From an uncultured Patescibacteria group bacterium (lineage in GTDB: Bacteria > Patescibacteriota > Microgenomatia > UBA10105 > UBA927), in NCBI GenBank assembly GCA_937921305.1, contig CAKZSU010000003.1:38831-102830 (forward strand): a stretch of 64,000 bases of DNA, in the 5' to 3' direction. Positions 2,660 to 52,702 of the stretch are shown one piece after another. Both the position numbers and the translations under genes were made by a program. Position 1 is the first letter of the stretch; the number at the start of each line of letters is the position of its first letter. Under the pieces are notes generated by a model. That model did no database searches, was not told where the DNA came from, and was given only the letters and a program-made list of their open reading frames with translations.

Positions 2660-2743
2660 GCCGAAGTGGCGGAATTGGTAGACGCGCACGCTTCAGGAGC
2701 GTGTCCAGTTATTTGGGTGGAGGTTCGAGTCCTCTCTTCGGCA
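2660..2743 (+). tRNA. tRNA-Leu, anticodon CAG. Class II tRNA with a long variable arm.
   Basis: Sequence GCCGAAGTGGCGGAATTGGTAGACGCG...TTCAGGA...GGTTCGAGTCCTCTCTTCGGCA. Anticodon stem CACGC/GCGTG. Confidence 0.75.
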
Positions 2744-2854
2744 CAAAATGTATCAAAGGAAGCATAATTTGCTTGGATTGTTTGGATGAATAACCAAAAG
2801 TTGAAGAAGATATATATGGTTTTAAAGGGAATCGTCTATAGAATGCATCAGTAT

Positions 2855-2936
2855 GCGGATGTGGTGAAATTGGTATACACGCAGTCTTGAGGAGGCTGTG
2901 CCGTAAGGCGTGGAGGTTCGAGTCCTCTCATCCGCA
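2855..2936 (+). tRNA. tRNA-Leu, anticodon GAG. Class II tRNA.
   Basis: Sequence GCGGATGTGGTGAAATTGGTATACACG, with the anticodon loop TTGAGGA. Long variable arm and a GGTTCGAGTCC T-loop. Acceptor is GCGGATG/CATCCGC. Confidence 0.7.
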
Positions 2937-2978
2937 CAAAAAGTCGCACAAAAGCTATTAAACAAAAATATGAACGTG

Positions 2979-3051
2979 GGACGATTAGCTCAGCTGGTAG
3001 AGCGTTTCATTTACACTGAAAAGGTCGGGGGTTCGAGTCCCTCATCGTCCA
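2979..3051 (+). tRNA. tRNA-Val, anticodon TAC
   Basis: GGACGATTAGCTCAGCTGGTAGAGC D-arm. Anticodon stem TTTCA/TGAAA carries the loop TTTACAC. T-loop GGTTCGAGTCC. Acceptor GGACGAT/ATCGTCC. Confidence 0.75.
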
Positions 3052-3099
3052 CAAAAAGAAAACACTCGTAAAACGCTGTATATTTGAAAAATATTTATT

Positions 3100-3172
3100 G
3101 CCAAGATAGCCAAGGTGGTCACGGCGCGTGTCTGAAAAACACGTTATACAGGTTCGACTCCTGTTCTTGGCA
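3100..3172 (+). tRNA. tRNA-Phe, anticodon GAA
   Basis: Sequence GCCAAGATAGCCAAGGTGGTCACGG. Anticodon stem CGTGT/ACACG carries the loop CTGAAAA. T-loop GGTTCGACTCC. Acceptor GCCAAGA/TCTTGGC. Confidence 0.75.
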
Positions 3173-3237
3173 CAAAACTTCTTATAATTTGACCTTTAAG
3201 TAAGATCGCGATATAGTTCTTTTATAAAAAAATTCAT

Positions 3238-3309
3238 GCGGCGGTAGTTCACCGGTAGAATGTCTCCTTGCCAAGGAGAAGGTAGAGGGTTCGATTCCCT
3301 TCCGCCGCT
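3238..3309 (+). tRNA. tRNA-Gly, anticodon GCC
   Basis: Sequence GCGGCGGTAGTTCACCGGTAGAA. Anticodon stem TCTCC/GGAGA carries the loop TTGCCAA. T-loop GGTTCGATTCC. Acceptor GCGGCGG/CCGCCGC. Confidence 0.75.
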
Positions 3310-3383
3310 CAATAAACAATGGAAGACGCTTTTTCTTGAGGAATAATGGCGTCTTTTTTAGTATAATTATCAAAAAATACTAT

Positions 3384-3459
3384 TGCCGGGTGGTGTAACG
3401 GTAACACGCCTGACTTTGGATCAGCGCGATTCTAGGTTCGAATCCTAGCCCGGCAGCCA
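3384..3459 (+). tRNA. tRNA-Gln, anticodon TTG, with an encoded 3' CCA
   Basis: Sequence TGCCGGGTGGTGTAACGGTAACACG. Anticodon loop CTTTGGA. T-loop GGTTCGAATCC. Acceptor TGCCGGG/CCCGGCA followed by G-CCA. Confidence 0.75.
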
Positions 3460-3559: not shown

Positions 3560-4200
3560 TCCATTAAAAAGAAGTTCGAGCCGACAGTTTTTGCCATGAT
3601 TGATAAATCATGGCAACTATTTTTTGCATGCGCGATTTTGTGCGCTGAAAGCGCACTATTTACGAATTCACAAAAAGGTTCGAGCCACTCAACGCCGTTT
3701 TGGGAAATTTCCTTGATTTTGGAGCTAAGAAGTGATTTTGTTTCTACTAATTCGTTTTTCTTCTTTAGGTAGTCTTCGGGTGATATAACCCTGTCTAAAT
3801 ATCCCTCAAGTAGTCGGGTCAAGCTTTTCTTCGGATTCTTTGATTTTGAGTTGATAATCAGAAACAATGCTGGATGATTTTTGCTTTTCTAGATTCGCGT
3901 CTTTATCCGCCCACTCAAGAAACTTTTTGGCGGCATGCGGCGGTAAAGATGCTCGCAATACAATTTCTTTTAGTTGTTTCTCAATTTCAGTTTTATCAAT
4001 ATATTTTTGCGAGCAAGCTCCTTTCTTTTTAGAACAACGGTAGTATACATATTCAACTTTTCTATTTGTTCTCCTGTAGTACTTGGTGTGCTTTTCGGCG
4101 GTAATTGCGCCGCCGCATTCGCCGCACTTTACTAATCCTAAAAAATCAAATAAGTGCTTGTTGTTTTTGACCTTGCGACTTTTAAGTTTTACCACTTCTT
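3560..4200 (-). pseudogene. C-terminal remnant of a large serine recombinase (zinc beta-ribbon plus coiled-coil region). It is frameshifted and lacks the N-terminal resolvase catalytic domain.
   Basis: Two overlapping minus-strand ORFs, 3806..4369 and 3445..3867. The first carries LGLVKCGECGGAITAEK...YYRC, which is the recombinase zinc-ribbon motif. The second carries LEGYLDRVISPEDYLKKKNELVETK, a typical recombinase C-terminal coiled coil. No resolvase-domain sequence lies upstream. Confidence 0.55.
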
Positions 4201-4390
4201 GGCACTTAACAAAAAGTTTCTTGGAAATTAAAGGTGGGTGTTTTCCTTGGCAACAAAGAGCACAGGAAAGACAGGAAGCACGCCAAGAGAGAGTTGAAAA
4301 TCGGGTCAAAGACGCTGTGATATCGTTAACAATCGTATTGACGCGCGCATAAGTCATTACGAAGCACATTACAACGATGTTGAGGCACGC

Positions 4391-4729
4391 ATGGCCAGAG
4401 TAACGGAGCGAACAAACGAATTTATCAATCGTTTGGAAACCAAAGGATACGATGTTTCAAAAGTCAGAAGCGACCTTTCAACTCTGGAAGGAATGAGAAC
4501 AACCCGAAGAAGTTTATACACCGCATTTATTAATGTGCTTAAAGAAGCCAAACAATATGATTGCGGAGATTCGGAGGGAGCATTCAAAACAGCTATGGAT
4601 GAATCCAGAGCTGCTCTTGCCAAATGGAGAGATCAGATCAAGGCTAACAGAGAGTATATAAATACTACTCTACGCCCTGACCTGCAAGGTCTAAGAGGAC
4701 AAAATCCAAGTCCTGCTACAGCTGAGTAA
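4391..4729 (+). CDS. Hypothetical protein, 112 aa, charged and non-membrane
   Basis: ORF with sensible composition and a GAGG motif about 8 nt upstream. No recognisable family. Confidence 0.35.
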   Translation: MARVTERTNEFINRLETKGYDVSKVRSDLSTLEGMRTTRRSLYTAFINVLKEAKQYDCGDSEGAFKTAMDESRAALAKWRDQIKANREYINTTLRPDLQGLRGQNPSPATAE

Positions 4730-4809
4730 TCCTCTGCCATAGTGTGAAAGAAACGTCTGCAGGCGTTTCTTTCTCGGTATTTAGTAATTATGAATGGAGG
4801 TGATAATTA

Positions 4810-5103
4810 ATGAATAAATATTTACCATACGTAATTATCGGAGTTTTAGTTATTGTGGCGTTTGTGTTTGTGTCCGGCAGGCTAAACACAAAATCAAGTT
4901 TGATTGGCACGACACAAAATGAGGGGGTTATAACAGATACGGGCCCATCACCAATTCCTGTTTCTGAAGTTGTTTTAAATGACAAATCAGAAGTTAATGA
5001 TGCAATTGATGCCGAATTAAATCAGATTGATAAAGAGCTGAAAGGTGTAAATGATACCAACCTCGATGCGAGCGGTCTGTCTGATAAGCAGCTGGGTATG
5101 TAA
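4810..5103 (+). CDS. Hypothetical small membrane-anchored protein, 97 aa
   Basis: Strong Shine-Dalgarno sequence (GGAGGTGATAATTAATG). N-terminal TM helix YVIIGVLVIVAFVFV followed by an acidic, serine/threonine-rich tail. Confidence 0.5.
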   Translation: MNKYLPYVIIGVLVIVAFVFVSGRLNTKSSLIGTTQNEGVITDTGPSPIPVSEVVLNDKSEVNDAIDAELNQIDKELKGVNDTNLDASGLSDKQLGM

Positions 5104-5119
5104 TATGAGTTTTCCTAAA

Positions 5120-5220
5120 TTTTCGCCCTATGGGCGAGAAAATCGCGCGCGCAAAAAATAGCGGAGGCGCGGCGGGTTGGGGCGCCGCGCCGGAGCAAGC
5201 GAGCCGCGAAGCGGCGAGCT
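5120..5220. other. GC-rich cluster of hairpins in the convergent intergenic region. Candidate bidirectional terminator, structured RNA or element boundary.
   Basis: Three hairpins: TCGCCC-TAT-GGGCGA at 5123-5137, GGCGCGGCG-GGTTGGGG-CGCCGCGCC at 5166-5191, and GCCGC-GAA-GCGGC at 5203-5215. The region is strongly GC-skewed against an AT-rich background. Confidence 0.3.
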
Positions 5221-5265
5221 AACACATTGAAGTTCGACATTTTTTGTAAACGGCCAGCTATTGCT

Positions 5266-6618
5266 TCATTGTGTCAACATGCTTGTACGAATGATGGTGT
5301 ATGTTTTTGGATGGTAAAGAAAAATAGCAGGAATGTCTTCTGCGATAACCTTTTGAAAATCAGCGTATAGTTTCTTTCTTTTTTCTTGATCTGTTTCTAT
5401 TCGTCCGTCTTCCAAGAGTTTGTCAACTTTCAGGTTTGTATATCCCGTGATATTGTTTGGCGATTTGGAATGCCAGAACGGATATTGATCAGGATCTGGC
5501 GGCAAGTCTTGCGCGGTTAACAATACATCAAAATCATCTGTGAGCGAGTTCACCACTTGTACATTCGTCGGTATGCCAATCGCTGTCCATGATTGCGCAA
5601 TCGTATTTGCTTGATGAATGTATTGAGGAAATGTGGCGATAGTAATCGATGCTCTATTTTCAGGAAGCGGGATTGACTTTGCAAGTTTTTTCGCTTGTTC
5701 TTCGTTATACTCGTAATGCTTCGTTTTATCATTGTACGCCCATGATGTTTTTTGAATCGGCGAATGGGCGCGTTCTTCGTCTGAGAATATCGGTGTTCCA
5801 TACGCAAGCGCCTGACGAAGCGTTCTATTTTGAAATACCGACGATCTCATATTAAAAAAAAGCCCAACGATTCTATCGTATTTTACTTTTGCTCGAACCG
5901 TTGTTTGTTTCCAGTTCTCGAATGATTCTGGCGATGAAATATCCTCTACTCGATCGATCGATCCTCGTTTGTACGCAAGCGTCGCAAGTGACTCTGTTCT
6001 ATAAAAAAAATATTCTTTGATCGGTAGATTCGTATTTTGAGCTGGAGAAAGTCGGAGTGTATCTATTCGTCCTTCTTTTAATTTCATGCGATCAACTTTA
6101 TATGGTCCAACGCCAGTTAATCCAGCTTGAAGCAACGGTTTGGAAACCAACGCAGGAAATGGACTATACGGTTCGGGTAGCGTCGCTTTGATTGTTTGTT
6201 CATCGATGCTATCCCAGAGCACACCGGTAATATTATAATTAATATCGTTTGCTTGAACGCGATTGCCAGTATGCCATGTCATCGTTGCAAGAGTGAACAC
6301 GAAAGATTTCCCTCCTTCTTCCTGTGTCCATGACGTGGCGATGCCGGGTTCTGGGGTTCCATTTGAAGCAAGCGTCGTTAATCCCATGCTAATATCTCGT
6401 TGGATCGCCAAGGGAAGATCTGACGGTGTAAATTCGCCGATAATTCCTATTCGTTCAACCTTTTTTGTCAATGGAAGCATAACAACTGGAAGAAATCTTC
6501 CCGCAATGATGGTAACAAGCAATCCAACAATGAAGCCAAACACAAGAGACCGACTATACCGCTTGGTAAGGTCTTCCACAAACCATACAAAAACTCGTAT
6601 TCGCTTTGAGAGCTTCAT
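5266..6618 (-). CDS. ABC transporter substrate-binding protein, family 5 (Opp/Dpp-like), with an N-terminal membrane anchor
   Basis: 450 aa with an N-terminal TM segment. The length and overall pattern fit the SBP_bac_5 fold. Its start overlaps the secG stop by 4 nt. Confidence 0.6.
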   Translation of the reverse strand: MKLSKRIRVFVWFVEDLTKRYSRSLVFGFIVGLLVTIIAGRFLPVVMLPLTKKVERIGIIGEFTPSDLPLAIQRDISMGLTTLASNGTPEPGIATSWTQEEGGKSFVFTLATMTWHTGNRVQANDINYNITGVLWDSIDEQTIKATLPEPYSPFPALVSKPLLQAGLTGVGPYKVDRMKLKEGRIDTLRLSPAQNTNLPIKEYFFYRTESLATLAYKRGSIDRVEDISSPESFENWKQTTVRAKVKYDRIVGLFFNMRSSVFQNRTLRQALAYGTPIFSDEERAHSPIQKTSWAYNDKTKHYEYNEEQAKKLAKSIPLPENRASITIATFPQYIHQANTIAQSWTAIGIPTNVQVVNSLTDDFDVLLTAQDLPPDPDQYPFWHSKSPNNITGYTNLKVDKLLEDGRIETDQEKRKKLYADFQKVIAEDIPAIFLYHPKTYTIIRTSMLTQ

Positions 6619-6830
6619 CTCACTAGTATATTTGCAATAGAAGTAAGAAAAAAGAAGATAGCGACAATAAAAGTGCTGACAAACACAAACCGTTCCGCTC
6701 CGCGCTTACTACGATATATGATGTCTCCCCCGAACGATCTTCCTAATCCGCCTTTGCCGCTTTGAATTAAAATTAATCCGATGAGTAAGGAAGAAATAAT
6801 AAGATGAATACCAAGCAACAAAGATTTCAT
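6615..6830 (-). CDS. secG: Preprotein translocase subunit SecG
   Basis: 71 aa, two TM segments, and the LIQSGKGGGL signature. Confidence 0.8.
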   Translation of the reverse strand: MKSLLLGIHLIISSLLIGLILIQSGKGGLGRSFGGDIIYRSKRGAERFVFVSTFIVAIFFFLTSIANILVR

Positions 6831-7852
6831 AAGCTCATTCGCAACGTATCCATAATCTTCTCCGCGAGCTTTTCGCTGTCGTGGCGAATAAGACTTCGCA
6901 CCAGAACATCCGCGGACGATTTTGTCACAATATCATTTGACGCGATGTCTCCTGTTATTATCGTATAAGACGCGGAATTTGGCAAATCGTTGACAACGGG
7001 AAATTCGTGAGATTTTTCATATTCTCTCAGCGCTTCCTGGGGAAGCTGTCCTGTGTTAATGATGACGGTATCAATAGAATTTCCGATATGAGCATTTACC
7101 GTGTTGACATGATCTGTTGCAGTGAGTCCATAGGTTTGTCCGTATTTTGTCATCAGGTTCACGACAAACACTTTTTTCGCTTTCGATTTCTGAATTGCCT
7201 CTGGGATGCCTTTTACCAAAAGATTTGGAATGAGGCTTGTGTAGAGATCGCCTGGACCTAGCACAATGATGTCCGCTTCGACAATGGCTTTCATCGCGTC
7301 AGGGTTTGCTTCTGCTTCCGGAGACAGCCAAATTTTTGTTATTTTGAGTGTTCCGTCATGCTGTGGTTCGTCGATAAAGTGCTCTTCTGTTACGACGCTT
7401 CCGTCTTCATACTCCGCGAACAAATGCGTCGATGTATAAGAAACAGGAAGAATGGTCCCTTTGATTTTTAAGACTTTTCTTGTTTGTTTGATCGCCTCTT
7501 TTTGACTTCCAACAATATCTGTCAGCGCCGCCATAAAAAGATTACCAAAGGTCATACCTTTTATTCCTTGACCTTTGTCAAAGCGATACATGAAGAGTTT
7601 TCGCATAAGGCCCACTCCGCCATTTTCATCGGAAAGCGCGACAAAACACTGTCGAATATCAGAGGTTGGCAAAAGACCGAATTCATCGCGAATCCGTTTA
7701 TTCGATCCGCCGGAATCACTCATCGTGACAATCGCGGTAAGACTGACAGGATGATTTTTTAACCCTTTAAGCGTCACAAATGTTCCTGTCCCTCCGCCAA
7801 TACATACGACTTTTGGCAGTTTTGGTTTTTTTTGCGTGTTTATAGTTTTCAT
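6827..7852 (-). CDS. yvcK: YvcK / gluconeogenesis factor family protein (UPF0052, CofD-like)
   Basis: N-terminal VVCIGGGTGTF glycine loop and the TMSDSGGSNKRIRDEFG motif characteristic of the YvcK/CofD family. Confidence 0.8.
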   Translation of the reverse strand: MKTINTQKKPKLPKVVCIGGGTGTFVTLKGLKNHPVSLTAIVTMSDSGGSNKRIRDEFGLLPTSDIRQCFVALSDENGGVGLMRKLFMYRFDKGQGIKGMTFGNLFMAALTDIVGSQKEAIKQTRKVLKIKGTILPVSYTSTHLFAEYEDGSVVTEEHFIDEPQHDGTLKITKIWLSPEAEANPDAMKAIVEADIIVLGPGDLYTSLIPNLLVKGIPEAIQKSKAKKVFVVNLMTKYGQTYGLTATDHVNTVNAHIGNSIDTVIINTGQLPQEALREYEKSHEFPVVNDLPNSASYTIITGDIASNDIVTKSSADVLVRSLIRHDSEKLAEKIMDTLRMSL

Positions 7853-36228: not shown

Positions 36229-37376
36229 TTAACACTTCCGGAAGGAGACTTGTCTTTGTGTACATATTATACCTTTTCCATATCCAAGTTCTTTCATGAG
36301 GGCTGTAGGAGCGCTACAAAGAGACAAAGGAATCGAAAGGTTTCCATAACGTTGAACATCCTGAATAGCCTCCATGATGGCGTCATAGGAACTTCGATCT
36401 TTTTTCTCGTTTGCAAGATATATTGTTCCAAACGACAACACAATGGTCGCTTCAGGATAGCCAATCTTATGACACGCGTCAAATACGGCGTTTGCCACAA
36501 CAAGTGCTGTTGGTTGAGCCATGCCAATATCTTCAGCAGCGAAAATAATCATCCGTCGAGCGATAAACAATGGGTCTTCTCCTCCTTCAACCATGCGAGC
36601 AAGGTAGTATAACGCGGCGTTAACATCCGACGCACGCATGCTTTTTATAAACGCTGAAATCGTGTTGTAATGCTCATCGCCTGCTTTATCGTATGAAAGG
36701 TATGGTGTTTGAAGCGCTTGTAAAATTATTTTTTGAGTAATTTCATTGCTCTTCACGAGAGAAATAGCGATTTCTAGTATCGTAAGCAATTGTCTCGCAT
36801 CGCCATTCGCAAACTCAACAAGTTTTCTTTGAGCATCTTTTGTTATCGTTTTATTGAATAACTTTAATGCTCGATCAATAAGAATATTCATATGATAATG
36901 TTCAAGTCGTTTTAATAGAAAAATTTTTACTCGAGAAAGCAACGCGTTCTGTATCTCAAATGAAGGATTTTCCGTTGTTGCACCAATAAGCGTTATCGTT
37001 CCTTGTTCAACATAGGGGAGCAACGCGTCTTGTTGTCCTTTATGAAATCTATGAATTTCATCAAGAAAAAGAATTGTTCGTTGAGATCGTTGTTTCGCCT
37101 CTCGTATGGTATCCCGAATGTCATCAAGAAGCCCACTCGTGATAGCAGATTTCCACGCAATATGCGCGTCAACTTCATGAGCAATGAGATGAGCAAGTGT
37201 TGTTTTCCCCACGCCGGGCGGTCCCCAAAAATGAGCGACGGAAGATGTCCCGTGCGGATCATTTGAAGTAAAATCCCACTTGAACCAACAAGATGTTCTT
37301 GTCCAACGAACTCATCAAGTGTCTTTGGTCGCAATCGATCAGCTAATGGTTGATACGGATGATTCATAGTGCTCAC
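36229..37376 (-). pseudogene. rarA: Recombination-associated AAA+ ATPase RarA/MgsA, interrupted by a -1 frameshift in a homopolymer run just before the Walker A motif
   Basis: N-terminal fragment (MSTMNHPYQPLADRLRPKTLDEFVGQEHL...LPSLIF) and the remainder (W)GPPGVGKTTLAHLIA... lie in different frames. They meet at the A5/C4 run at 37223-37231 (T5G4 on the coding strand). Confidence 0.7.
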
Positions 37377-37953: not shown

Positions 37954-38655
37954 ATGGAAGACATTAACACAAAAATTATCGCCACGATTGGTCCCGCAAC
38001 ACTTAACTTCAACATCTTTCAAGAACTTGTAATCGCTGGCATTGATTATATTCGTATCAATACAGCCTATGGAGATACCACCCAATACGATCTTATTTTA
38101 GAAAACAGACGAAAGCTTCCTAATCATCGACATATCCCGGTAGTATTTGATATTAAACATGAAGATATTATGGATTATTTTGTTGAAAAACAACTCGAGG
38201 TTGTCGCATTATCATTTACGGAACGAGCGGCACAAATTGAACGGATACGGCAAAAAGCGCCTCATGCATTTGTGATCGCGAAAATTGAATCAAAAGAAGG
38301 CGTTAAGCATTTTGACGAAATTCTTGAATCAGCAGATGGCATTATGGTCGCAAGAGGCGATCTCGGAAAAGCGGAGTCATTGGAAAAAGTGCCACCGCTG
38401 CAAAAGACATTCACTAGAAAAACGTTGGAAAAAGGGAAATTTTTAGTGACAGCCACAGAAATGCTTCTCTCCATGACAAAAAATCCTCAACCAACACACG
38501 CGGAAGTCTCTGATGTGGCGAATGCGGTGTTTGACGGCACATCAGCGGTGATGCTTTCAGAAGAAACAGCAATTGGAAAATATCCTGTTGAAACAGTCTA
38601 TTTTATGAGACGAATCATCGAAGAAGCGGAACGGTGGAAAAAGATAGATTATTGA
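37954..38655 (+). CDS. Pyruvate-kinase-like protein that keeps only the catalytic TIM-barrel (A) domain. The B/lid and C-terminal domains are absent.
   Basis: 233 aa. Carries pyruvate-kinase catalytic motifs: TKIIATIGP, IAKIESKEGVKHFDEILESADGIMVARGDLG, TATEMLLSM, and PTHAEVSDVANAVFDGTSAVMLSEETA. Confidence 0.6.
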   Translation: MEDINTKIIATIGPATLNFNIFQELVIAGIDYIRINTAYGDTTQYDLILENRRKLPNHRHIPVVFDIKHEDIMDYFVEKQLEVVALSFTERAAQIERIRQKAPHAFVIAKIESKEGVKHFDEILESADGIMVARGDLGKAESLEKVPPLQKTFTRKTLEKGKFLVTATEMLLSMTKNPQPTHAEVSDVANAVFDGTSAVMLSEETAIGKYPVETVYFMRRIIEEAERWKKIDY

Positions 38656-44599: not shown

Positions 44600-44638
44600 A
44601 GTGATTGGGACGGTAATTATATCAAATCCTATAAAATT

Positions 44639-44657
44639 TTTCTAGAATATACTAGAA
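44639..44657. promoter_or_regulatory. Inverted repeat TTCTAG-N6-CTAGAA upstream of the divergent MFP/RND operon. Candidate operator.
   Basis: Perfect 6-bp arms seen directly in the intergenic region. A third CTAG half-site lies about 15 nt downstream. Confidence 0.25.
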
Positions 44658-44729
44658 ACTTTCTAAAAACTAGCGATACGGTATTCATACTCTTGATTTC
44701 TTGCAAAAGTTTTGTCATAGTGTCAAAAT

Positions 44730-45185
44730 ATGGAAGATCAAACACAAGTTACACAACACCAATCATCCCAACAAACACAGGATGATCAACCAAATACCGA
44801 GGTATCTCTCTTGTTGAATTTAGAATCGCTGATCAAATCGCATATTTCCGGACTTCAACAACGAAAAGAGGAGTTAAAACAATTAAAAGAGATGATGCAG
44901 TCCGCATTTCAGAACGATTCTTTGTATCAAGAAGCGGAATTGGCGGTAAAAGAAGCGAATAAGAAAAAGCGCGACGCGAAAGCCAGACTCATGAAGCTCG
45001 CGGAAGTTCGATCGGTTCAAGACAAAGCAAACGATATTGCTGCTGAGATCAAAGAAATGGATGCGGCACTCTCAGATTATCTTCGGGAATATCAACGACT
45101 TTCCGGTTCTAATGAAATTGTCGATGATCAAGGCAACGTGCATGAAATCACCTATATCGCCAAGCTGATAAAAAAGGGAAGATAA
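44730..45185 (+). CDS. Hypothetical coiled-coil protein, 151 aa, with a glutamine-rich N-terminus
   Basis: ORF lying 16 nt upstream of the CofE-like gene. No recognisable family. Confidence 0.4.
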   Translation: MEDQTQVTQHQSSQQTQDDQPNTEVSLLLNLESLIKSHISGLQQRKEELKQLKEMMQSAFQNDSLYQEAELAVKEANKKKRDAKARLMKLAEVRSVQDKANDIAAEIKEMDAALSDYLREYQRLSGSNEIVDDQGNVHEITYIAKLIKKGR

Positions 45186-45200
45186 AGTATACTAAAGCTC

Positions 45201-45944
45201 ATGCGCGTTACTTCTCTTAAAACATCTCCTGTAATGCATCAAGGCGATATCTTCGCATTTCTCGATGAATGGATTCACGCGTTGGAAGAGCGAACAATTG
45301 TCGTTATCACCTCAAAAGTTGTGAGTATTTTAGAAGGCAATGTCAGAGAAAAAACGATCTCAAAAGAGGATCTCATCAAACAAGAAGCGGGATATTACAT
45401 CGAAGATGAATGGCTGTGGAAATACTACCGATTATTTATCACAAGAAAAAACGATATCATTATTGCAAACGCCGGCATCGACGAATCAAACGCAAACGAT
45501 CGGTATGTGTTGTGGCCAAAAAATCCGTTTGAAACAGCGGAACGCGTATGGAGACATCTAAAAACGAAACACACTCTATCTTCGTTGGGCGTTATTATTT
45601 CCGATAGTAGAATCACGCCGTTGCGGTGGGGAACGATTGGAATAGGCATTGCGTGGTGCGGATTCCAGCCTCTCAATGATTATCGAGGAGCGCCAGATAT
45701 TTTCGGCAGATCTCTTCGCGTCACAAAAGCGGGGATCTTGGATGGATTAGCCGCTTCCGCCGTCCTTGTTATGGGAGAAGGAAAAGAACAAACGCCAATT
45801 GCGATGATTACCGATGTTCCATTTGTTACATTCGTCGATCATCCGCCGACCGAAGAAGAACAACAATCGATGCGAATTGATGTAAAAGATGATATTTACG
45901 CGCCTCTTATGACAGCAGCGCCATGGCAAAAAGGTGGCAAATAA
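45201..45944 (+). CDS. CofE-like protein (F420-0:gamma-glutamyl ligase family)
   Basis: Block-wise similarity to CofE: NAGIDESNAN (NAGIDASNVE in CofE), LGVIISDSRITPLRWGTIGIGIAW (VGVIITDTNGRCFRRGVVGFAIG), DIFGRSLRVT (DLYGRELEVT), and VLVMGEGKEQTPIAMI (NLLMGEGGDGIPAVVV). Confidence 0.6.
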   Translation: MRVTSLKTSPVMHQGDIFAFLDEWIHALEERTIVVITSKVVSILEGNVREKTISKEDLIKQEAGYYIEDEWLWKYYRLFITRKNDIIIANAGIDESNANDRYVLWPKNPFETAERVWRHLKTKHTLSSLGVIISDSRITPLRWGTIGIGIAWCGFQPLNDYRGAPDIFGRSLRVTKAGILDGLAASAVLVMGEGKEQTPIAMITDVPFVTFVDHPPTEEEQQSMRIDVKDDIYAPLMTAAPWQKGGK

Positions 45945-45956
45945 CTCAGGGGAGAT

Positions 45957-46718
45957 ATGAATATTCTTTCTTTGATTGTAGGCGTTATTCTTAACCTCTT
46001 TGGTGGAGTTTCCTCTCCTGAAAGAATGCAGCAACATCAGAAACCAACCCCATCTCAGAAACAACAAAAAACTATAACGTATAACAACACATCATATGGC
46101 TATTCGATGCTCGGTCCTATTCCAAGAACATCAATCACGCTTTATAGCAATTTGCCGGTAAAAAAAACAGGAAAAGAAATACAGGAAATATATCAATGTA
46201 AATATCTTATAAATGGAGGATTTTATACAAAAGAGAATACCCACTTAGGACTGCTTGTAACGGAAGAAGGAACAAAAAGTCAACGAATAAAACACTCGCT
46301 ATTTCATGGATTTTTTTTCAAAACAAACGATGGATCAATACATATTGATCGCATGATTCCAGAAAAACCATTAGGATTTGCGCTTCAATCCGGTCCATTG
46401 CTGATTGTTAAAGGAGAACCGGTAATATTAAAGATTATTCAAGATGAACAAGCAAGACGGATCGCTGTTGGTCTTGATGAGTTTTCCAATGTGTATTTTT
46501 TTGCATTTTATGACACAAACAATCCGTTTCACGGACCATTTCTTGCGGATATGCCAGAAATTCTTCAAAAAACTGGAGAAGCGGAGGGGATCGCAATTCA
46601 GAACGCGATAAATCTTGACGGTGGAAGTCATTCGGCATTTTATGGATCAGATATAACGCTTACCGAACTTTCGCCGATTGGAAGTTTCTTTTGTATCAAA
46701 AGTAGAATCGATCGGTAA
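45957..46718 (+). CDS. Phosphodiester glycosidase family protein (NAGPA-like domain) with an N-terminal TM/signal segment
   Basis: YLINGGFY motif and AINLDGGSHSAF motif, both typical of the phosphodiester glycosidase domain. Confidence 0.65.
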   Translation: MNILSLIVGVILNLFGGVSSPERMQQHQKPTPSQKQQKTITYNNTSYGYSMLGPIPRTSITLYSNLPVKKTGKEIQEIYQCKYLINGGFYTKENTHLGLLVTEEGTKSQRIKHSLFHGFFFKTNDGSIHIDRMIPEKPLGFALQSGPLLIVKGEPVILKIIQDEQARRIAVGLDEFSNVYFFAFYDTNNPFHGPFLADMPEILQKTGEAEGIAIQNAINLDGGSHSAFYGSDITLTELSPIGSFFCIKSRIDR

Positions 46719-46982: not shown

Positions 46983-48224
46983 TTATCTTCTCACAAACAA
47001 AATCGCGTTTGGGATGTTTCTCCCAGGTCCAACCTTGTATCCTCCGTACCATAATGCCGTTGATCCGCCGGAATCAAGATTCAACGCGTTATCCATGCCA
47101 AGCGTTTTCATAACATGCGCGTTCTCCGCGACTGTCGCGTTATGCGTAACGCCGATATACACCAACGCGCCTTTATTTGCAACAAAACTTCTCGGTCCCC
47201 TGCTCCCTTTTTTGGGATCGCCGTCGTCTCCGTACGCAATGTCCCCGCCAAACACTAATAATCCTTGATTTGCAATCATGCTATCAATTCCTGTATCCCT
47301 GCCCCATTCCAATGATTTTTGAACAAATCGAACAGAGTTTCCAAGAAATATCACCGCCGGAACAACGCTATATACATTATTTTCAGAGTTAAAATAGACT
47401 TTATCTTTGTTCATAAGCAGCGTGTCAAATGAATTCGTTTTGCCTGCGCAAGATGGATATGATGAAGGACAAAAATATGATCCATTAATTCCAGCGTACG
47501 CACCATTTCTCGATACATACTCCGCGAGAGACAACACAGGACACTCGTTTCGACAATCGTTTGACGACGCGGTATCAACAATCACTCTTGTAGATGATAG
47601 ATCGCCCGCAACAATGTCAACCATATACTGTTGACCCAACGCAGACACTACTTGTCTACTATACCCATACCCGGGAGGTGTATTGCTTTCCTTCGCAGAT
47701 GTAGGATGAGGCTGTGATGATTTCGCAATGTAATCGTTTATTTTATAAATTTCTTGAGAAAGTGCGCGCAATTTTTCTTGTGCTGTTTTATAGTCTCTTT
47801 TGCCAAGAAGGACTAAAATTGTCGCGAATTGTTCGTCGAGTTTCTGCGTCTTTTGCGACAATTCTCGAATCTTTAGTATTTCTTCATAAGACTGAATTGT
47901 TTGCTGATACGTAGAGCGAATCTGTTCCAATTCTTCTTTTAATTCTTGATTAATTTTTCTCTGATCTTCTTGTTTTATTCGTTCAAGTTCCGCGCTGACG
48001 CTTGCAAGCTCATTTTGAAGTATCAATGCTTGAAGCTCGTATCGATCTCGTTCTTTTCTTAACGCGACGATTTGTTGCATTGTTTGTTCTTTCTCATCGG
48101 AGTAAAACAATACGATAAATAACCCTATAAAACATGCAGTGATCAGTATAACAATAAAAACTAATGCTTTGAGGCGATGAGAAGCAATCATTTGCTTTAC
48201 CATGCTTTTCTCTTCCTGTATCAT
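46983..48224 (-). CDS. Membrane-anchored coiled-coil protein with a C-terminal phosphodiester glycosidase domain
   Basis: N-terminal TM segment, a coiled coil of about 150 aa, then AGINGSYF...ALNLDSGGSTALWY motifs. Confidence 0.6.
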   Translation of the reverse strand: MIQEEKSMVKQMIASHRLKALVFIVILITACFIGLFIVLFYSDEKEQTMQQIVALRKERDRYELQALILQNELASVSAELERIKQEDQRKINQELKEELEQIRSTYQQTIQSYEEILKIRELSQKTQKLDEQFATILVLLGKRDYKTAQEKLRALSQEIYKINDYIAKSSQPHPTSAKESNTPPGYGYSRQVVSALGQQYMVDIVAGDLSSTRVIVDTASSNDCRNECPVLSLAEYVSRNGAYAGINGSYFCPSSYPSCAGKTNSFDTLLMNKDKVYFNSENNVYSVVPAVIFLGNSVRFVQKSLEWGRDTGIDSMIANQGLLVFGGDIAYGDDGDPKKGSRGPRSFVANKGALVYIGVTHNATVAENAHVMKTLGMDNALNLDSGGSTALWYGGYKVGPGRNIPNAILFVRR

Positions 48225-51542: not shown

Positions 51543-51881
51543 ATGCTTGCTACAAAACGATGCGTTCCCTGCGAAGGGCATACCGCTCCAATGACTGAAG
51601 ATGAGATCACTTATCATCTTTCTCTTGTCTCTGGCTGGCGATATATTTCTGAAAAACGAGCAATAGCAAAACAATTTATCTTCAAGAATTTCGCCGAGTC
51701 AATGCGTTTTGTGAACACTATTGCAAACATAGCGGAAGAAGAAGGGCATCATCCCGACATATATCTGCACGATTGGAAGTATGTTGACATCACGCTCTCA
51801 ACGCATGCAATAAACGGATTGTCAGAAAACGATTTTATTCTCGCCGCAAAAATTGATATCGCCACTTCTTCACATTCATGA
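51543..51881 (+). CDS. Pterin-4-alpha-carbinolamine dehydratase (PCD/DCoH)
   Basis: 112 aa. EEGHHPDI active-site motif and the typical length. Confidence 0.8.
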   Translation: MLATKRCVPCEGHTAPMTEDEITYHLSLVSGWRYISEKRAIAKQFIFKNFAESMRFVNTIANIAEEEGHHPDIYLHDWKYVDITLSTHAINGLSENDFILAAKIDIATSSHS

Positions 51882-52702
51882 CTATCGGGTTGGTTACCTA
51901 TAACGATCTTCGGACTGTTCCCAAAAGCCATGTTCCGCTTCTTGAAGCGGGAAAAAGACAAGGAATATCGATCATTCCTGCTCCGTGGGATAATCCCGCG
52001 ATCGATTGGACGCGTTTTAACGGATTAATCGCGTTCTGTTGTTGGAACTATTATCATAACTATGCATCGTTTCTTTCATGGCTTGCATATCTGGAATCAA
52101 TCAACGCCTCAATTATAAATCCGATCAAAACGCTTCGATGGAATAGTCACAAACAATATCTTCTCGATCTTGAACAACGAGGCGTAAACATCATTCCAAC
52201 AATCCTTGTAAAAAGAGAAACAACAATGGATATTGATATGTGGTTTGAAGCGTTTAACAATGATCATCTTGTGATAAAACCAGCAGTAAGCGCCGGAGGA
52301 AATCAGATTGTTCATCTTCTTAAATACCATCACGCAAACAAGAATAAGGTCATAGCCATGCTGCAAAAAGGAGATATACTTATTCAACCATATATAGAAG
52401 AAATCAATCATGAAGAAAGATCGTTTATTTTTTTAGGAAACGAATGGTCTCACGCGATCATCAACCGTCATGGAAGAAAAAAACGATATACCCCGTCGGA
52501 TCAAGAACTTTCTGAAGCTCATCATCTTCTTTCGCTTATTCCATATGACCATGTATACGCAAGAATTGATGGTGCGATCATCAACGATACATTCTCTGTT
52601 TCGGAGGTGGAACTTCTTGAGCCAGATTTATACTTCCCCATGAACCCAAAAAGCGGTGATATGTGCATTGCTTACGCTCGTTCTTTTTTCTTGCTCCATT
52701 GA
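51878..52702 (+). CDS. Hypothetical protein, possibly an ATP-grasp fold enzyme
   Basis: 274 aa. VIKPAVSAGGNQIV resembles an ATP-grasp nucleotide-binding segment. It overlaps the PCD gene by 4 nt. Weak call. Confidence 0.35.
   Translation: MTIGLVTYNDLRTVPKSHVPLLEAGKRQGISIIPAPWDNPAIDWTRFNGLIAFCCWNYYHNYASFLSWLAYLESINASIINPIKTLRWNSHKQYLLDLEQRGVNIIPTILVKRETTMDIDMWFEAFNNDHLVIKPAVSAGGNQIVHLLKYHHANKNKVIAMLQKGDILIQPYIEEINHEERSFIFLGNEWSHAIINRHGRKKRYTPSDQELSEAHHLLSLIPYDHVYARIDGAIINDTFSVSEVELLEPDLYFPMNPKSGDMCIAYARSFFLLH

Follow-up and report, generated by a model that had tools for sequence, protein, structure and literature searches.

The closest described system to the gene considered here is CT611 of Chlamydia trachomatis, also called FolC2. 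Chlamydiae lack folC, and a CofE-like gene of COG1478 located in their folate cluster, described in 2007, replaces the canonical FolC (PMC1971073); CT611 complements an E. coli folC mutant (PMC1971073; reviewed in PMC4161248). A second related system is CofE, the coenzyme F420-0:L-glutamate ligase represented by the Archaeoglobus fulgidus structures 2PHN, 2G9I and 7ULD and by the model TIGR01916, and a third, relevant to an adjacent gene, is the NAGPA "uncovering enzyme" with its bacterial DUF2233 counterparts (6PKU, 3OHG, 5H3K). The "FolC2" paralogue of Lactobacillus is an unrelated protein that belongs to the canonical FolC family. We analyzed a 64-kb window, that is, the whole 64,000-nucleotide stretch of contig CAKZSU010000003.1 from an uncultured member of the Microgenomates (Patescibacteria), in which a CofE-like (COG1478) gamma-glutamate ligase gene (45201..45944, + strand, 247 amino acids (aa)) is located between a gene for a helical conserved hypothetical protein, termed cc151 (44730..45185, + strand, 151 aa), and a gene for a NAGPA/DUF2233-family phosphodiester glycosidase-like protein (45957..46718, + strand, 253 aa). 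The original prediction for this locus had suggested that the ligase and the glycosidase take part in a new pathway acting on a phosphodiester-containing glycoconjugate or envelope polymer. Our analysis favors another interpretation, to which we assign a probability of about 0.75: the middle gene would encode a FolC2-type ligase for salvaged folate, and the order of the three genes would be specific to one lineage and not the mark of a shared pathway.

The ligase was assigned to its family by searches with profile hidden Markov models. It matches the Pfam family F420_ligase (PF01996) with E=2e-35 and 122.7 bits (cut-off 25), and its nearest solved structures are the Archaeoglobus CofE entries 2G9I, 2PHN and 7ULD (E ~7e-18, residues 7-204). 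It carries the motifs NAGIDESNA, GVIISDSR...GIGIAW, DIFGRSLRVT and VLVMGEGKEQTPIAMI. The block-for-block match to CofE that had been claimed for the middle gene was thus confirmed, together with all the motifs quoted in its support, and the family searches that had been proposed for F420_ligase and NAGPA both returned matches above cut-off. The best model for the ligase is TIGR04132, "putative folate metabolism gamma-glutamate ligase", which aligns end to end (residues 1-244 on model positions 1-241 of 241) with 285.8 bits. Among the 3493 homologues of the ligase, many are named "putative folate metabolism gamma-glutamate ligase" or "DHFS/FPGS" (dihydrofolate synthase / folylpolyglutamate synthase) by JGI.

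If the gene were an ordinary cofE, its product would make polyglutamylated coenzyme F420. The PF01996 match, the proximity to the Archaeoglobus structures, and the NCBI automatic name "coenzyme F420-0:L-glutamate ligase" given to some of the homologues are in line with this possibility, which we nevertheless consider to have next to no chance of being correct. The CofE equivalog models score only 86-127 bits against cut-offs of 180-304 (TIGR01916, 127 vs 180.65; NF009809, 126.6 vs 274; NF009810, 86.4 vs 304), and members of the family occur widely among host-dependent bacteria whose genomes are reduced. The CofD-family match in the window (6827-7852, - strand) is a YvcK-type UDP-GlcNAc-binding protein, which scores 308.6 bits with TIGR01826, above the cut-off, and 27 bits with the F420 CofD model. 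No other cof or fbi gene was found among the scanned open reading frames (ORFs) of the window, and no cof or fbi genes were present among the recurrent neighbors at the 80 ligase loci described below. These results agree with the earlier view that F420 synthesis is unlikely in this organism, and, for the window and these neighborhoods, they answer the search for other F420 genes that had been suggested along with it. As the only CofD Pfam match in the window, the YvcK gene could mislead motif-based searches for F420 genes.

Compared with CofE, the window ligase has a homologous catalytic core with the NAGIDxSN, DS/DT and MGEG motifs; however, it also has signatures that are specific to its own family and absent from CofE, among them PLRWG, EQTP and a C-terminal segment in which F211, P216, E220, D231 and W242 are conserved, and it falls below the CofE cut-offs and lacks an F420 gene context. 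With CT611 it shares the PF01996 fold family, the 47 positions that are conserved across the family, and the full length of TIGR04132, including the C-terminal extension that the CofE models reach partly or not at all; both Chlamydia and the window organism also have reduced genomes. The window ligase is 45-47% identical to the members from Chlamydiae. It differs from CT611 in its position, which is outside a folate cluster and between a helical hypothetical protein and a NAGPA-type glycosidase, and probably also in its role: the window organism probably salvages folate, in which case the ligase would act mainly as a folylpolyglutamate synthase and not as a dihydrofolate synthase.

To assess conservation within the family, we compared the window ligase with 71 ligases outside its own clade. 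It retains 46 of the 47 positions that are at least 90% conserved among them, the sole change being T134S. None of these 47 positions is fixed differently in the clade of ligases that occur next to cc151 or the glycosidase and, because the conserved positions carry no clade-specific substitutions, there is no sign of a change of function in that clade. In neighbor-joining trees built from BLOSUM distances (without support values), all ligases in the cc151/NAGPA context formed one clade, which is nested among ligases of the candidate phyla radiation (CPR) that are linked to DHFR-like or Vut_1 genes, and which adjoins the FolC2 branch of intracellular bacteria.

The genomic neighborhoods of the ligase were surveyed by scanning one genome per species, which provided 80 loci (L001-L080). 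Of these, 79 yielded the ligase ORF, and with the window added 80 loci were analyzed. Proteins encoded within four genes of the ligase were clustered without prior labels, and the clusters were then annotated with Pfam. The loci originate from CPR lineages, from host-associated bacteria (Chlamydiae, Cardinium, Rickettsia, Holosporaceae, Finniella, Odyssella and Francisellaceae) and from a few Chloroflexi. A RibD_C/DHFR_1-type reductase was found at 23 of the 80 loci, most often as the gene immediately preceding the ligase in the same orientation, a Vut_1 transporter at 11, FolKP (an HPPK-DHPS fusion) at 6, FolD at 5, and a CADD/PqqC-like protein at 4. The cc151 protein was found at 7 loci and the 253-aa-type glycosidase at 6. 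Altogether, at least one folate-type neighbor was present at 33 of the 80 loci and cc151 or the glycosidase at 8; the two kinds of neighbor were never found together. These 8 loci all belong to one Gottesmanbacteria-like clade, and the remaining 72 have neither partner nearby.

Within this clade, the order cc151-ligase-glycosidase was observed in the window and at L001, L006 and L047, and at L037 with one inserted gene. At L002 the ligase and the glycosidase are present without cc151, and at L003 and L007 cc151 is located one to three genes away. The window ligase has 62-68% identity to its three closest relatives; in each, the ligase and the closest homologues of cc151 and the glycosidase are on equally sized contigs (33,426, 78,910 and 20,453 bp), which suggests that the same order occurs there. 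The neighborhood check that had been proposed therefore has a positive outcome, restricted to a single Microgenomates clade.

The homology to CT611 and the folate-gene neighborhoods of relatives together make folate the most likely substrate. According to the proposed mechanism, the FolC2-type ligase would take over the task of the canonical FolC and attach gamma-linked glutamate to folate or dihydropteroate, and polyglutamylation of salvaged folate would retain the cofactor in the cell in a form that folate-dependent enzymes can use. No Mur-ligase-type (canonical) FolC was seen in the 64-kb window. CPR bacteria commonly hold folA, glyA and folD, while most other pathways of cofactor biosynthesis are absent (PMC11974145), and for this reason a FolC substitute that traps salvaged folate is plausible. 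The cc151 protein and the small, exported or membrane-anchored NAGPA-type glycosidase would form a separate and older Microgenomates pair, probably acting on the cell envelope. In the single Gottesmanbacteria-like clade the ligase gene lies between the two genes of this pair and would probably be co-transcribed with them, as a matter of gene order in a compact genome.

Several observations weigh against this interpretation. Experimental FolC activity in the family is known for Chlamydia CT611 and for no member of the CPR branch. Searches of the 64-kb window by tblastn with the neighbors found in relatives detected no DHFR-like, Vut_1, FolKP or FolD genes, and folate use by the window organism is an assumption, the window being the part of its genome that was read. 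The TIGR04132 score of the ligase, 285.8 bits, is under the curated NCBI cut-off of 350. Finally, overlaps of 4-34 nt between the ligase and glycosidase genes are frequent in relatives, and the outer flanks of the trio differ among the window, L001, L006 and L047, so that the block moves as a unit; a functional operon would look alike on both counts. With respect to the score, the cut-off is strict: environmental Chlamydiae (330-348 bits) and Cardinium (329 bits) also fall below it, within an overall range of 328-348 bits. The window ligase scores in the same range as its CPR relatives in folate contexts, such as those encoded directly downstream of DHFR-like genes at L005, L008 and L077 (275-288 bits).

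The same scores bear on the possibility that the CPR branch acts on another pterin-like or deazapurine-like cofactor, for example one imported by Vut_1 and reduced by the RibD_C-type protein, in which case the name of the family would not describe its Patescibacteria members correctly. Every CPR ligase tested falls below the TIGR04132 cut-off of 350 (275-294 bits), the associated reductase fits RibD_C better than DHFR_1, and a pterin-4a-carbinolamine dehydratase gene and an ATP-grasp ligase gene are present 5 kb away in the window. Characterized relatives of Vut_1 (YhhQ) transport queuosine precursors, which also favors this possibility. We regard it as unlikely, given that the CPR ligases are 45-49% identical to members from Chlamydiae, Cardinium and Rickettsia, some of which are encoded in folKP/CADD/DHFR-like clusters, that the 47 positions at least 90% conserved extend across all branches, and that CPR folA genes complement E. 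coli folA (PMC11974145).

Three further features of these neighborhoods were observed. A same-strand cluster of genes for a Vut_1 transporter, a RibD_C/DHFR-like reductase and a FolC2-like ligase occurs in other CPR lineages (L005, L008, L018, L021, L029, L052, L054, L057 and L060) and looks like a compact import-reduce-glutamylate module for the salvage of folate or a related pterin. At L009, L012 and L020, the ligase is immediately preceded, in the same orientation, by a gene for a MATCAP/DUF1704-type carboxypeptidase-like protein (PF08014, E=2e-24), which could hint at turnover of the glutamate tail. L037 shares with the window the gene order AcrB, HlyD, cc151, ligase, NAGPA, UbiA and M29 peptidase at 38-70% identity; this locus, as well as L007, L010, L012 and others, comes from metagenome-assembled genomes labeled "uncultured Gammaproteobacteria" or "Pseudomonadales" that carry Microgenomates-type genes, and the labels look wrong.

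The layout of the trio in the window agrees with the original description as three plus-strand genes: the ORFs are present, and products of 151, 247 and 253 aa are likewise predicted by independent public gene calling for the identical sequence, which is part of a 565-kb contig in ENA ERZ6864144. The gaps, previously given as 16 and 13 nt, are each one nucleotide shorter, with 15 nt between cc151 and the ligase (45186-45200) and 12 nt between the ligase and the glycosidase (45945-45956). Judging from this spacing of 12-15 nt alone, the three genes are probably co-transcribed. Upstream, the trio is flanked by divergent HlyD-like and AcrB-like genes, and downstream by a convergent gene for a second, distant NAGPA paralogue of 413 aa, which lies outside the operon (46983..48224, - strand). 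The promoter of the trio is presumably located within the 130 nt that separate the divergently oriented HlyD-like gene (- strand) and cc151 (44600..44729). A consensus scan of this region found one promoter-like site, on the minus strand (44644-44616), and none on the plus strand; the promoter and terminator scan is uninformative, the total number of sites being no higher than in shuffled sequence.

The 253-aa glycosidase matches the Pfam family NAGPA (PF09992) with E=8e-14 and 52.6 bits (cut-off 25). Its AlphaFold2 (AF2) model has a predicted local distance difference test (pLDDT) score of 91.9, and a Foldseek search with this model retrieved the catalytic domains of vertebrate NAGPA (6pku/6pky, E ~1e-11, with 7e-12 to 6pku_A, and template-modeling scores of 0.62-0.67), as well as the bacterial DUF2233 structure 3OHG and Slr0280 (5H3K). 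The catalytic Asp and a DGGGS motif, the latter reported as invariant, are described in PMC13474241. The window protein shares with these enzymes the fold and the Asp-Gly-Gly of the catalytic loop, and its D221, G222 and G223 are invariant across 37 homologues. It differs from NAGPA in being a minimal single-domain protein with only an N-terminal anchor and in having a loop that is one Gly shorter, DGGSHS in place of DGGGS, where 5H3K aligns with DGGSS. The earlier assignment as a NAGPA-type glycosidase with an INGGFY motif is thus supported by family and fold, while the loop it had read as NLDGGSS is NLDGGSHS in the sequence. Residues 3-15 form an N-terminal hydrophobic helix, either a signal peptide or a membrane anchor, from which the protein is probably localized to the cell envelope. 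Literature searches found no bacterial PF09992 member with a defined substrate.

The 413-aa paralogue consists of an N-terminal hydrophobic segment, a coiled coil of ~130 residues and a NAGPA domain at residues 240-410 (PF09992, E=2e-14). A recent duplication of the two NAGPA genes was rejected, as the 413-aa and 253-aa proteins share only a 40-residue match. The window thus presents a small genome with two NAGPA-family envelope glycosidases encoded side by side.

The cc151 protein has no family match in Pfam or NCBIfam; a sequence search of the PDB found nothing, and Foldseek against the PDB found nothing below E=3. Its AF2 model (pLDDT 84.6, predicted template-modeling score (pTM) 0.46, a low value that leaves the packing of the helices uncertain) contains a disordered, Q/acidic-rich region at residues 1-20, helices at 21-62, 64-88 and 91-125, and a short beta hairpin at 129-139. 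The C-terminal motif ALSDYLREYxRLSGxNEI...G...EI.Y.AKL is invariant in the alignment of homologues. There are 323 homologues without a curated Pfam family, one of which has a precomputed Seryl_tRNA_N match; the few named sources are Microgenomates/Patescibacteria. More broadly, homologues of all three trio proteins come from Patescibacteria, including the Microgenomates group, Gottesmanbacteria, Levybacteria and others. Several identities for cc151 were considered and rejected. Matches to PHROGs were weak and inconsistent, with another family for each homologue. TerB_C, Seryl_tRNA_N, DUF2203 and YlqD were sub-threshold in a relaxed Pfam search with 25 members and were read as coiled-coil noise. 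An origin as the split-off coiled coil of the 413-aa NAGPA protein was rejected on a BLASTP E value of 0.29.

The association between cc151 and the glycosidase was assessed in a second survey, anchored on cc151, for which 80 metagenome loci were fetched and the next gene could be read in 68. In these 68, cc151 is followed by the ligase at 17 loci, directly by the glycosidase at 16 and by another gene at 35. Downstream of the 17 cc151-ligase loci, the glycosidase follows at 9, the contig ends at 7 and a different gene is present at 1; the glycosidase is therefore found at 9 of the 10 loci that extend far enough. All 25 glycosidase matches are located directly after cc151 or after cc151-ligase. 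One of the loci without the ligase, L089, was checked by eye and has the order dus, cc151, NAGPA, with gaps of 3 and 16 nt (4047-6240). The commonest upstream neighbor of cc151, judged from sequence, is a tRNA-dihydrouridine synthase-like gene, present at 14 loci, which is a housekeeping context.

Because cc151 and the glycosidase are adjacent without the ligase at 16 loci, these two proteins constitute the stable pair, which can do without the ligase. On the tree of cc151, ligase-bearing and ligase-free loci are intermixed; the simplest reading is that the cc151-ligase-glycosidase order would be ancestral and was followed by several losses of the ligase, the number of which is approximate because the trees carry no support values.

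These results bear directly on the original proposal of one pathway. In such a pathway the ligase would attach glutamate, or another amino acid, to a non-folate, phosphodiester-containing glycoconjugate or its precursor, the glycosidase would trim the polymer outside the cell, and cc151 would serve as a scaffold. The tight gaps in the window, the overlap of the ligase and glycosidase genes in relatives, and the preservation of the trio both with different flanks and at nearly all readable cc151-ligase metagenome loci are what such a pathway would lead one to expect. On balance it is improbable: the pair is found without the ligase at loci that interleave with ligase-bearing relatives on the tree, 72 of the 80 ligase loci have neither partner and 33 have folate genes, and no clade-specific change affects the conserved positions of the ligase. 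In addition, the ligase lacks a signal sequence and is expected to reside in the cytoplasm, while a hydrophobic helix is present at the N-terminus of the glycosidase. The proposal therefore does not stand against the TIGR04132 identity of the ligase, its folate-type neighbors, the ligase-free pairs and the lack of clade-specific substitutions. The supporting argument from a shared action on phosphodiester substrates carries little weight, since it is established that CofE-type ligases act on a carboxylate and not on the phosphodiester, in line with the reaction described in PMC1971073.

A variant of this idea is that the ligase of the Gottesmanbacteria-like clade was recruited into the cc151-NAGPA operon as a partner, for example to glutamylate a non-folate, phosphate-linked envelope precursor that is later processed by the glycosidase. 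We consider such a recruitment very improbable; if true, it would represent a new use of the CofE fold in the cell-envelope chemistry of Patescibacteria. For the FolC2-type ligase acting on salvaged folate, the link to the glycosidase is probably one of co-transcription only.

The remainder of the window contains glycolysis genes, phosphoketolase, an acetyl-CoA synthetase (ADP-forming)-type protein, a pyrimidine operon, uvrABC and lexA, a gene content that fits the streamlined fermentative bacterium envisaged in the original prediction. The pterin-linked pair located 5 kb from the folate-type ligase (51543-52702) comprises a pterin-4a-carbinolamine dehydratase gene (51543-51881, + strand; Pterin_4a, E=8e-30), which overlaps by 4 nt the ATP-grasp ligase gene (51878-52702, + strand). 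The product of the latter is weakly similar to DcsG, glutathione synthase and the tetrahydromethanopterin:glutamate ligase MptN, with all matches far under their cut-offs. Two ORFs may be affected by truncation, a frameshift or a missed start: the pyruvate kinase ORF (37954-38655, + strand), which encodes the barrel domain only (233 aa), and an MgsA-like ORF (36229-37212, - strand), in which the GTG start lies inside the AAA domain. Near the beginning of the window, six tRNA genes (2660-3459, + strand) are followed by an ORF (3806-4369, - strand) with the recombinase zinc-ribbon domain PF13408; no catalytic recombinase domain was detected in this ORF, which may be a remnant of an integrated element.

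The ligase family itself is already described (FolC2/CT611) and is common in tiny symbiotic bacteria, and the findings on the trio open no long-standing question; we found no paper on a FolC2-type ligase in Patescibacteria. Two by-products are of interest, namely the Vut_1/DHFR-like/ligase cluster of other CPR lineages and the uncharacterized, Microgenomates-specific pair of cc151 and glycosidase. The practical value of the analysis is in correct annotation, as public pipelines give the label "coenzyme F420-0:L-glutamate ligase" to many of these Patescibacteria genes, a name that would falsely point to F420 metabolism where it is almost certainly absent. Under the interpretation favored here, the Patescibacteria genes would be read as folate glutamate ligases that replace FolC, which fits the view of CPR bacteria as folate users (PMC11974145).

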